Source: Escherichia phage FL08
Sequence record: PP400785
DNA: 64,000 nucleotides
Reading direction: 5' to 3' (one strand)
Positions 26,980 through 29,009 of this stretch are shown piece after piece. The notes beneath the pieces were generated by a model, which did no database searches, was not told the DNA's origin, and saw only the letters and a program-made list of their open reading frames with translations. The first letter of the stretch is position 1, and each line of letters begins with the position of its first letter. A program made the position numbers and the translations under genes.

Positions 26980-27345
26980 TTAAATATCAAATTCATTAAG
27001 AACTACATCAAAGATTGCTTCAAGATGCTCAGGTTTAGCTCTGTTACTCAGAATATGACGAATCCAAGTTTTAACCAAAAGCTTGCGATTATCACCATTC
27101 CAGCAAGGATGAGTCCCTAAATCGCGTTGACGAAAATCATCATCCAGAGCGATTTTAAAGTTGGAACCTTCCATTGTGATTGAAACCGTGATGCCATTTT
27201 CAAATCGCATATAAACGTAATTAGGAGTCATATACTGTTCAATTTCGCATACTGATCCATTTTGATGTTTCCAAAGGCAAATAGTATCAATAGAACCTGC
27301 AATACCATTAGAAACATATTTACGTTCAAAGTTGATGTAGTTCAT
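26980..27345 (-). CDS. hypothetical protein
   Basis: 121 aa from the ATG at 27345 (GGAG SD); the ORF track starts at a TTG at 27357; early promoter upstream. Confidence 0.5.
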   Translation of the reverse strand: MNYINFERKYVSNGIAGSIDTICLWKHQNGSVCEIEQYMTPNYVYMRFENGITVSITMEGSNFKIALDDDFRQRDLGTHPCWNGDNRKLLVKTWIRHILSNRAKPEHLEAIFDVVLNEFDI

Positions 27346-27381
27346 TTTATTCTCCAAGATGTTTAATTGCGGTACAGGTAT

Positions 27382-27410
27382 ATAATATCATATCCTGTAC
27401 CAAAGTAAAC
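27382..27410 (-). promoter_or_regulatory. early promoter (GTTTAC-N17-TATTAT) with flanking inverted repeat
   Basis: The - strand reads GTTTAC tttggtacaggatatga TATTAT; the -10 sits between the inverted repeat GGTACAGG/CCTGTACC. Confidence 0.5.
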
Positions 27411-27412
27411 AA

Positions 27413-27745
27413 TTATTTTACTACTTTCCAGTGTTGCATGTCAAGTTTACCGACTTTTTTCATCTTCTCAATTAAGCGTTCGGCACGTTGGCGAGCTGTA
27501 ACATAATGCCATTCGCCTAATTCATTTTGTTCAATTTTTCCAACGATTACTGTATTCAATTCATAAATCCAACCAGTAAAGAAATTATGAACTTGAATTG
27601 TAAAGGTGAAATCTGTTCCCATACCTTCTGTTGTTTCTACTTCAATAATATCACCTTCAACTGCCATTAAGAACCACATAGTTTCATCATATTTACCATT
27701 GAAGCATTTAGTTTTAACTGCAGCGTTCAGATTAATCGTTTTCAT
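27413..27745 (-). CDS. hypothetical protein
   Basis: 110-aa ORF. Confidence 0.5.
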   Translation of the reverse strand: MKTINLNAAVKTKCFNGKYDETMWFLMAVEGDIIEVETTEGMGTDFTFTIQVHNFFTGWIYELNTVIVGKIEQNELGEWHYVTARQRAERLIEKMKKVGKLDMQHWKVVK

Positions 27746-27821
27746 TTTATTCTCCTTTGTTTGTGTAAAATAATACTATCACAAAGGAACCATACTGTAA
27801 ACAACTTTGTGCAATCTTTGG

Positions 27822-27850
27822 AAAATAAAAAAGGACTCCCGAAGGAGTCC
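27822..27850 (-). terminator. rho-independent terminator after the basic small ORF
   Basis: The - strand reads GGACUCC-UUCG-GGAGUCC followed by UUUUUUAUUUU. Confidence 0.7.
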
Positions 27851-27855
27851 TCAAC

Positions 27856-28074
27856 TTATGCTTTCTGCTTACCAAAACGAGAAGCATCATCTCGAAGAAC
27901 CGCACGTGCTCGGCGCATGATCTTCTCAACAGTTTGATTGATACGAGAGTTCGACCCACGCTTGTAGCCAGCGCGTTTAGAATCACCAACTTTCTTTTCA
28001 ACTGCTTTCTTTGCTTTAACTTGTTTTGCCATTATAAATTCTCTTTTAAATGAAAATGCAGGACTTATTGGCAT
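27856..28074 (-). CDS. hypothetical small basic protein (30.9 position)
   Basis: 72-aa ORF, or 58 aa from the internal MAKQVKAKK...; very Lys/Arg-rich; no convincing SD for either start; terminator just downstream. Confidence 0.4.
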   Translation of the reverse strand: MPISPAFSFKREFIMAKQVKAKKAVEKKVGDSKRAGYKRGSNSRINQTVEKIMRRARAVLRDDASRFGKQKA

Positions 28075-28277
28075 TGCCTGCGCAAGCCCTCAAGGGGAAC
28101 ATAGGTTTTTGGGTATTTAACGACCAGGATAACCATAAACCCGTCATCATTCACATTCAAGAGGTACACCATAAAACTGCCGGGGTCTTAAAACTATAAT
28201 GATTCGCAAATCATTAATCAGACAGTTCGATGGCTCCTCGATTTTAGCTCACACTAAGGCAGTGAATCTCCAATAAA

Positions 28278-28526
28278 TTACTTCAATGTTACCACAAAGT
28301 GACGAACTGCTTTTCGCGCAGCAGAAGCCAGAGGCTTAGCATACTTAAGTTCATCTTTTTCCTGAAGCTCAGCAGCTAATGCAGTTTGAGCAGGATTCAA
28401 ATGTTTGAAATAACGCAGGATTTCAAGAGCTTCGGCTTCAACATCAATAGATGCGCCATAGTTTTCGTGACCATTATTCCATGCGTTTCGTTGCAGTTCA
28501 AGAGCGTGTTGTAATTGTTTAATCAT
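28278..28526 (-). CDS. rIII: rIII lysis-inhibition accessory protein
   Basis: 82 aa as in T4 RIII, immediately downstream of gene 31. Confidence 0.72.
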   Translation of the reverse strand: MIKQLQHALELQRNAWNNGHENYGASIDVEAEALEILRYFKHLNPAQTALAAELQEKDELKYAKPLASAARKAVRHFVVTLK

Positions 28527-28665
28527 TTAAAAATTCTCGTTAGAGATTAAAACTCGGTAGTCACGTTCTTCTGAATTTCATCTTCTTTCGACAGATCTCT
28601 CAGTTGTAGACTACCACGTAGAATTGTTCGGTTAACTTATTATTCCGACACCCAATTCATATTAT

Positions 28666-28673
28666 TATTTATA
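28666..28673 (-). promoter_or_regulatory. possible late promoter (TATAAATA) at the start of the rIII leader
   Basis: The - strand reads TATAAATA immediately after the gene 31 stop, about 140 nt upstream of rIII; could be a chance match in AT-rich DNA. Confidence 0.35.
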
Positions 28674-29009
28674 TCACTTATAAAGACACGGAATAGCTTT
28701 ATAGTGACAAGTAACGAATTTTTGTTTAATTTCTTTTGGCTGCTTAAGACCCAGAGCTACAAAAGGATGCGGAACATTTCGAATTTGACCAACTGGAAGA
28801 GAAGTCAAATCACCGACTTCGCAGAAACCTTCAGGAACATCAGGACCAACAGAGTGAACTACACACAGTTCAGGAACTTCACCTTGGACACGTTTACCAA
28901 TAATAAGTCCTGATTCTGTAACTTCTTCATCACCGGCTTGCGCAGGTTCAGAAACTAAAATAACATATTCACCGACAGCACGAATTGGTAGCTGTTGTAC
29001 TTCAGACAT
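28674..29009 (-). CDS. 31: gp31 co-chaperonin (GroES-like)
   Basis: 111 aa as in T4 gp31. Confidence 0.85.

Follow-up and report, generated by a model that had tools for sequence, protein, structure and literature searches.

A conserved structured RNA with a covarying pseudoknot in the spacer between rIII and gene 30.9 of T4-like phages

The 245-nt spacer that separates gene rIII from gene 30.9 in Escherichia phage FL08 (sequence record PP400785; positions 28033-28277) is in all probability a conserved structured RNA on the gene strand, composed of covarying elements and encoding no protein. None of the records examined annotates the pseudoknot that it contains, which also lies outside all Rfam families. 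The stretch of DNA analysed, called the window here, is 64,000 nt long; coordinates are those of the whole stretch, and all parts of 27746-28277 are taken on the minus strand. Of the possibilities raised for this region by the initial annotation, a structured RNA element is well supported by the fold of one domain (A), by covariation in A, in the pseudoknot (module B) and in a hairpin (T), and by conservation of position. As a whole, the spacer is best explained as an untranslated, structured segment of mRNA acting in cis, a reading to which we give an even chance. No description of the spacer or of an RNA structure within it was found in the searchable literature, which did not cover a 2003 paper on rIII and 30.9 expression.

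Loci carrying rIII and 30.9 were taken from IMG/VR and from annotated phage genomes, representing seven named genera (Tequatro-, Mosig-, Dhaka-, Gelderland-, Karam-, Kanagawa- and Marfavirus) and further groups. These yielded 56 distinct rIII-30.9 spacers of 9-416 nt (120-416 nt in all but one), found at the same position in at least eight genera or groups. When aligned, they resolve into short modules whose presence and order vary by lineage, and which do not recur elsewhere within the 64-kb window. Distant T4-like phages that have rIII and lack 30.9 have no spacer, the next gene starting 0-9 nt from rIII or overlapping it.

Module B (28096-28152), supported by a covariance model and by pair counts, is an H-type pseudoknot present in 54 of the 56 spacers, again in at least eight genera or groups, and it has persisted across genera in which rIII and 30.9 have diverged to about 50-76% protein identity. 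Stem S1 (28145-28140 with 28128-28122) has 6 bp with a bulge, while in stem S2 the loop sequence GGUU (28134-28131) pairs with AACC (28107-28104), a strand about 15 nt downstream; the two stems are joined by a conserved A-rich linker of the form GUUAAAUAUCC(A/G)AAA, which in the window reads GUUAAAUA (28121-28114). Covariation was measured on 38 distinct sequences, with 500 column shuffles and partners slid by 1-3 columns as controls. Pairing cells amounted to 80.7%, against 69.7% in the shuffles (0/500), and the covariation score was 0.321, against 0.154 in the shuffles (0/500) and 0.02-0.14 in the slid controls. Three covarying pairs are free of violations: 9-31 (UA 19, AU 18, GC 1), 10-30 (CG 26, GC 9, UA 3) and 20-51 (GC 29, AU 9). 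In Karamvirus, Klebsiella and Enterobacter phages S2 lengthens to 7-9 bp (GAAAGUU/AACUUUC, UUGUGAG/CUCACAA, UUAGUAGUU/AACUACUAA); Klebsiella phage VPA32 is among those with a long S2. Insertions and deletions within the module preserve pairing, as in GACG-GG...CCUGGUC versus GACGAGG...CCU-GUC. A covariance model of the module (R1) has a single hit in the window (58.7 bits, E = 6e-12). Strand is not fixed by the core itself, in which G-U and A-C counts are 5 versus 5. An extension of S1 by U-G, A-U, G-U and U-A pairs into the conserved flanks, predicted by RNAfold, was set aside, as variation in relatives gives it no support. The DNA pattern GGTTATC-N5-7-GTTAAATA proved unspecific in viral contigs: among 120 stretches carrying it, a real module B was found in the T4-like ones only. 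The conserved 5' flank of the module, (G)UAUGAUGA at 28146-28152, is identical to a C-box (RUGAUGA); no D-box partner for it was found, and hits to archaeal and eukaryotic C/D-box snoRNA models, arising through AUGAUGA, were at chance level.

Domain A (28161-28239) is restricted to Tequatro-, Mosig- and Dhakavirus-like phages. It is an extended stem-loop of 79 nt (GAGG...CCUC), in which four helices are stacked, and when folded alone it reaches -23.1 kcal/mol (z = -3.28; 0/200 shuffles as good). RNAalifold returned the same structure for 13 distinct relatives, with 25 pairs, 5 of which show compensatory changes. The tip of the domain is the perfect 8-bp hairpin at 28197-28216 to which attention had been drawn at the outset, and which is present as described (UAAUGAUU-UGCG-AAUCAUUA on the minus strand). 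A perfect hairpin alone is not remarkable, and the window contains 27 hits for perfect 8-bp hairpins (nested ones included) versus about 10 in shuffles; it is conservation with compensatory changes that gives this one meaning, and two of the five compensatory pairs fall within it (U-A to C-G and A-U to U-G, in Dhakavirus). Because two G-U pairs that never vary and a frequent U-G pair can form on the gene strand only, the sense RNA is the folded species for domain A. The GC richness of 28075-28277, another feature noticed early, also holds, at 42.4% versus 36.0% for the window, which puts it at the 93rd percentile among segments of 203 nt.

Three smaller hairpins accompany A and B, and the conserved structure modules as a whole leave little of the spacer uncovered. 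Hairpin T (28249-28265; UCAC-UGCCUUAGU-GUGA, with GGAG at 28271-28268 before it) has a conserved loop, UACC(U/A)(U/A)AGU, around a 4-bp stem whose middle pairs 2 and 3 covary across genera (CG 13, UA 2, AU 1; and GC 9, AU 6, AC 1). Hairpin H (28087-28097; CCCCUUGAGGG, then a conserved CUUGCG) keeps its sequence across genera; it follows B in T4-type phages and in other lineages precedes B, directly after the rIII stop codon. Hairpin C (28058-28081; GCAGG-CAAUGCCAAUAAGU-CCUGC, with the U-rich tail AUUUUCAUUU) has a conserved 14-nt loop on a covarying stem, where CAGG/CCUG is replaced by CUGG/CCAG in Salmonella and other relatives. A stable hairpin lies 12-37 nt upstream of the 30.9 start in 43/43 distinct upstream regions, often with unrelated sequence (median folding energy -13.3 kcal/mol, n = 43 distinct sequences). 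Between hairpin C and the gene, a predicted helix (28038-28057) pairs AUUUUC (28057-28052) with GAGAAU (28043-28038), the strand that contains the Shine-Dalgarno (SD) sequence of 30.9, and would thus occlude it. This helix is present in both the minimum-free-energy and centroid folds, and analogous SD-pairing helices occur in relatives, formed by CUCC/GGA(A)G in most and by CCUC/GAGG in one lineage with a GAGG SD.

Scans of the window region, of narrow windows within it and of relatives with Rfam 15 returned no real family for any module. Of the checks proposed initially, the covariance-model search gave no match, while alignment across phages revealed conservation with compensatory changes. 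Two isolated hits were discounted: a DUF2815 RNA match to hairpin C (14.5 bits versus a gathering threshold of 41.2), which did not recur in the most similar-looking relative and is attributed to chance, and an Atu_C8 match (31.4 bits versus 50), which is merely the terminator of 30.9.

The absence of a convincing open reading frame (ORF) from the gap, also part of the initial annotation, was borne out, since none is conserved among relatives and none has a PHROG or Pfam match. A 49-aa plus-strand ORF, annotated as ar1_216 in phage AR1, is frameshifted to 24-26 aa in Mosigvirus and Dhakavirus despite conserved DNA, and 34/35-aa minus-strand ORFs starting at AUGAUG have their frame broken by indels in close relatives; neither the former nor the latter matches a PHROG or Pfam family. 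Spacers of relatives differ by single-base indels that would destroy a reading frame.

The noncoding stretch expected between rIII and its neighbour does exist, with limits set by gene 30.9 (27856-28032; 58 aa plus stop). This very basic ORF had been regarded as a doubtful coding sequence with no recognisable SD. It is in fact the conserved T4 gene 30.9 (98% identical to NP_049823), and it does have an SD, weak and positionally conserved, GAG 8 nt upstream of the start; in relatives the motif is purine-rich and at a constant distance, being GAG in the window and GGAAG in most others. The product matches phrog_1427 (E = 3.5e-31). Homologues were detected by tblastn in 998 phage records, and 66 homologous clusters were found among 5.8 billion proteins, all in T4-like phages of Enterobacterales. 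Homology spans the full 58 aa, with a conserved core SKRAGYKR-SN-RI and 14 invariant columns in alignment A5, and synteny is kept, the gene lying directly downstream of rIII and upstream of 30.8 with a terminator after it. The protein starts with MAKQ or MSK in all relatives compared, and its upstream in-frame extensions are mutually unrelated (MPISPAFSFKREFI, MYFSKMEDDK, MRLTAPPCISPKWKTK). As the MAKQ start is conserved and the extensions are not, the true start is the ATG at 28032 and not position 28074, which leaves the 72-aa form unsupported; the real gap is therefore 28033-28277, or 245 nt rather than 203.

A 97-aa UniProt entry, 'Uncharacterized 11.1 kDa protein in Gp30-rIII intergenic region', is a spacer ORF fused to 30.9, which probably reflects an older sequence version; where records give the 72-aa or the 97-aa form, this is an artefact of annotation or of sequence version. 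The reference record of T4 places 30.9 (58 aa) at 130364-130540 and rIII at 130785-131033, with the 244 bases between them unannotated. The label '1,4-alpha-glucan (glycogen) branching enzyme, GH-13-type' is attached to the 30.9 homologue in many GenBank and UniRef records, and 'baseplate wedge component and tail pin' in one public record; on a basic protein of 58 aa these are evidently propagated annotation errors.

The surroundings are those of a T4-like phage (Tequatrovirus): over 27400-28600 the window matches Escherichia phage AugustSocin at 100% identity and hundreds of Tequatrovirus genomes at 95-99%. Upstream of the spacer lie rIII (28278-28526), in the same transcription unit as 30.9, and gene 31 (28674-29009), both on the minus strand. 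Downstream, 27746-27855, which had been counted into the half kilobase with no convincing gene, contains ordinary signals: a strong terminator, a site resembling an early promoter, and the 30.8 ribosome-binding site. The intrinsic terminator after 30.9 (27831-27852), found by consensus scan, has a 9-bp stem and a UUCG loop followed by UUUUUAUUUU, and a terminator downstream of 30.9 is also annotated in PhAPEC2 and fPS-65. The same scan gave a promoter-like site of sigma-70/T4-early type, TTTACA-17-TAGTAT (with TG), at 27773-27801, whose homologous position is annotated as 'predicted early promoter' in Yersinia phage fPS-65. Gene 30.8 (27413-27745, ATG at 27745-27743) is preceded by an SD, GGAG at 27752-27755, read from the sequence; its product is Pfam PF06019 Phage_30_8 (E = 2.4e-58).

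Within 28033-28277 itself the consensus scan found no promoter-like or terminator-like site, and a targeted search of the gene strand found neither the late motif TATAAATA nor a MotA-box middle promoter in the gap; the only two sigma-70 matches there, at 28221 and 28160, are both 8-of-12. Gene rIII is reported to be served by early, middle and late promoters (PMC9409239), and since there is no promoter inside the gap, 30.9 is most simply reached by read-through from these. On the opposite strand, TATAAATT at 28033-28040 is a 7-of-8 match to the T4 late-promoter motif, lying antisense over the 30.9 start. Were it active, late antisense transcription would cross the spacer and rIII; the match is not conserved outside the T4-type subgroup.

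Together, these features suggest how the spacer might act in cis. It would form an untranslated part of a sense mRNA running through 31, rIII and 30.9 and ending at the terminator at 27831-27852, and would be at once a 5' leader with respect to 30.9 and a 3' untranslated region with respect to rIII. From 5' to 3' the RNA would fold into T, A, B, H and C, and then into the helix between the pyrimidine-rich tail of C and the 30.9 SD, with occlusion of the SD setting the level of 30.9 translation. The pseudoknot, together with conserved single-stranded nucleotides, would offer a putative protein-binding site, most economically for the 30.9 product (gp30.9) itself, and the structure might also protect flanking mRNA segments from decay. 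That the spacer is a cis-acting leader for 30.9 expression or stability is, from such sequence features, a little short of an even proposition; the regulatory leader of the initial annotation is accordingly plausible by position and by the SD-occluding helix, its role being inferred only.

Gp30.9, 58 aa with a net charge of about +14 (hand count), is modelled by AlphaFold2 as a single helix (residues 29-51) behind a basic N-terminal half that is unstructured and of low confidence (mean pLDDT of the model 67.6), and no relatives were found in Pfam, NCBIfam or PDB; with this charge and predicted shape it looks like a nucleic-acid binder. Autogenous control is ranked first because of the position of the spacer, the SD-occluding helix and the extreme basicity of gp30.9, and autoregulation through the leader, suggested by analogy, is nevertheless an unlikely outcome when taken by itself. 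A role as a read-through or frameshift stimulator for rIII was rejected, the distance from the rIII stop codon ranging from about 4 to about 290 nt.

Several observations weigh against the cis-acting reading, in which the function of the spacer RNA is inferred throughout. Wherever module B occurs, rIII and 30.9 are both present, so that it cannot be assigned to one or the other, and in some lineages it lies up to about 300 nt from the 30.9 start. Module order depends on lineage, with H before or after B and T before A or after B, which would suit a loose collection of independent elements no less than a single leader. One locus with a distant 30.9 homologue (L036) has a spacer of only 9 nt; the RNA is therefore not indispensable for a 30.9-like gene. 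S2 amounts to only 4 bp (GGUU/AACC) in the subgroup of T4 and the window, and module B alone folds no better than shuffles (z = 0.08). Its alignment was our own, built with pairing in mind and with the A-run adjusted by hand; for this reason, and because of the shared ancestry of the sequences, the shuffle control overstates the significance of the covariation.

An alternative is that the spacer, or part of it, gives rise to a stable noncoding RNA acting in trans, either processed from the mRNA or made from a weak internal promoter. Such an RNA might conceivably sponge up a protein, serve as a decoy against host defence, or work as a small RNA by base pairing. The several domains and many conserved unpaired nucleotides would suit it, as would the U-rich tail after hairpin C and the weak CTGATT-17-TATAGT site inside domain A; the GGAG motifs at 28271-28268 and 28238-28235 could serve as candidate RegB cleavage sites. 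However, the gene strand has no convincing promoter, the scan did not recognise hairpin C, with its loop of 14 nt, as a terminator, and the element is single-copy. A trans-acting RNA is improbable, if worth keeping in mind. GGAG is the recognition sequence of the RegB endoribonuclease (specificity as in PMC9409239). Between the rIII stop codon and hairpin T, the first of these motifs (28268-28271) is 7 nt from the former and close to the latter; the second (28235-28238) is within the basal helix of domain A. Since the first is GGUG or AGUG in other genera, RegB cleavage is not a conserved explanation.

The swapping of structured modules at this locus likewise speaks for an RNA with its own function. 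In many relatives the spacer carries a GC-rich element of about 135 nt, CGGCAAGUGCAUGC...GCUAACGGUGUGCAACAGAUAAGAG, which is absent from the window and from T4. It lies at 1850-1984 of locus L014, and also in L015, L017, L021, L023, L025-L033, L039 and L056, and further in L057, L063, L205-L207, L211, L213 and L219; its carriers include Yersinia phage fPS-65, VR5, and Klebsiella and Enterobacter T4-like phages, and its presence or absence varies between close relatives. RNAalifold assigned it 39 pairs, 13 with compensatory changes, among them a covarying hairpin capped by a GAAA loop. A hairpin loop, CCAUCG, is complementary to and covaries with an upstream CGAUGG, which is likely a pseudoknot. 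The element matches no Rfam family, and a tRNA-like reading of it by eye failed, as the T-arm does not pair.

A second element, a hairpin module of about 45 nt (..GCGUCAG(A/C)AAAAGGUUA(U/G)CUGUCUAAG..), takes lineage-dependent positions in the spacer: between A and B in L005, L007, L010-L013, L016, L018 and L020, and just before the 30.9 ribosome-binding site in L022, L212, L030 and L042. Its inner stem covaries (CAGA/UCUG versus CAGC/GCUG). These distributions suggest that structured RNA modules are shuffled at the rIII-30.9 locus. In two IMG/VR contigs (L043 and L044, about 1297-1620), modules A, B and C lie upstream of, and partly overlap, a match to no more than the C-terminal half of rIII (residues 43-82), which suggests that the locus was rearranged or duplicated, or that the assembly is at fault.

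It is distinctly unlikely that the spacer is ordinary transcription punctuation, that is, a leaky terminator or attenuator of the 31-rIII unit together with a promoter for 30.9. A hairpin just before the 30.9 ribosome-binding site is followed on its 3' side by a U-rich tail (at least 4 U in 8) in 23/43 distinct sequences, the weak sigma-70-like matches at 28221 and 28160 could be promoters, and promoter and stem-loop cassettes are reportedly shuffled in T4-type genomes. Where an intrinsic terminator would have a GC-rich stem, a short loop and a U tract immediately after, hairpin C as a candidate has a stem of 5 bp, a loop of 14 nt and the tail AUUUUCAU. The scan, however, called neither it nor any other terminator or promoter in 28033-28277; the gene strand offers neither a MotA box nor a late-promoter motif. 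Punctuation would also leave the covarying pseudoknot, the 79-nt domain A, hairpin T and the conserved loops unexplained.

Less probable still is that module B, with H or C, forms a divergent pistol-like ribozyme or a pseudoknot riboswitch controlling 30.9. The conserved unpaired nucleotides, the downstream hairpin and the SD helix do resemble an aptamer with its expression platform, although there is no known ligand candidate. The model for the pistol ribozyme (RF02679), which should be part of Rfam 15, had no hit at E <= 10 in 28025-28175 (151 nt) or 27300-28700 of the window, nor in 1740-1885 (146 nt) of locus L024. The env25 pistol reads CGUGG-UUAGGG-CCACG-UUAAAUA-GUUGC-UUAAG-CCCUAA-G..., and the AAA of its UUAAAUA segment docks in the minor groove of P1 (PMC6101554). 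Pistol ribozymes are phage-associated, and are defined by the helices P2 and P3 and by a strictly 2-nt G-U cleavage junction (PMC4604425).

Module B shares with them a short hairpin, the pairing of its loop with a downstream strand (S1 and S2 both covarying), and a UUAAAUA that follows the hairpin immediately on its 3' side and coincides letter for letter with positions 17-23 of env25. It differs in that the partner strand of the pistol pseudoknot forms the P2-P3 junction, for which there is no counterpart here, and in spacing, with 5-6 nt between UUAAAUA and the pseudoknot strand versus 10 nt in pistol. P2 and P3 helices and the 2-nt G-U junction were found in none of the 38 module B variants inspected, and their absence, together with the covariance-model result, excludes module B from the pistol ribozymes. 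Convergence may account for the common core, since H-type pseudoknots often have an A-rich strand that crosses the minor groove of stem 1. A broader proposal is that the spacer represents a new class of functional RNA with a pistol-like core, whether self-cleaving, binding a small molecule or forming a ribonucleoprotein with gp30.9, within a family of exchangeable RNA domains that includes the 135-nt element with its GNRA loop and pseudoknot, and this too we consider quite unlikely.

A decayed gene or mobile-element remnant, conserved through recent common descent, is scarcely credible: the spread in length from 9 to 416 nt, the coming and going of modules between close relatives and the 97-aa protein read through part of the spacer in an older T4 entry might suggest it, but no relative shows a conserved ORF or protein homology, frameshifting indels are tolerated while base pairing is kept, module B persists across genera despite diverged rIII and 30.9 proteins, and the compensatory nature of the substitutions largely refutes it.

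T4 is among the most closely studied of genomes, and yet the 244-nt gap stands unannotated in its reference record. The spacer RNA bears on post-transcriptional control in the 31-rIII-30.9 unit and would add one or more families to RNA databases, and a conserved pseudoknot beside a very basic protein provides a concrete and cheap experimental handle on gene 30.9. More broadly, the locus looks like an exchange site for structured RNA domains between phages.

The basic ORF of the window and T4 gene 30.9 (NP_049823; PHROG 1427) have the same neighbours and the same downstream terminator, and show no substantive difference. The preferred reading, an mRNA segment acting in cis, has its nearest parallel in the leader pseudoknots of T4 gene 32 and E. 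coli rpsO/S15, which are operators of autogenous control. Like them, the 30.9 leader would place an H-type pseudoknot in an untranslated region tens of nucleotides before a start codon, ahead of a small or basic nucleic-acid-binding product (putative for gp30.9) and with control at the ribosome-binding site (presumed for 30.9). Unlike them, it has the extra domains A, T, H and C, its pseudoknot lies about 300 nt from the start codon in some lineages, and there is no sequence similarity.

A different likeness is to the PeSL (promoter-early stem-loop) cassettes, which T4-type genomes are said to shuffle in hyperplastic regions, as Arbiol, Comeau and Krisch reportedly described in 2010. A PeSL consists of a strong sigma-70-like early promoter and a terminator stem-loop, with many copies per genome. 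The spacer modules resemble these cassettes as small stem-loop intergenic modules that are shuffled, gained and lost between related T4-type genomes, and they depart from them in having only 8-of-12 promoter matches and in being single-copy in 64 kb.

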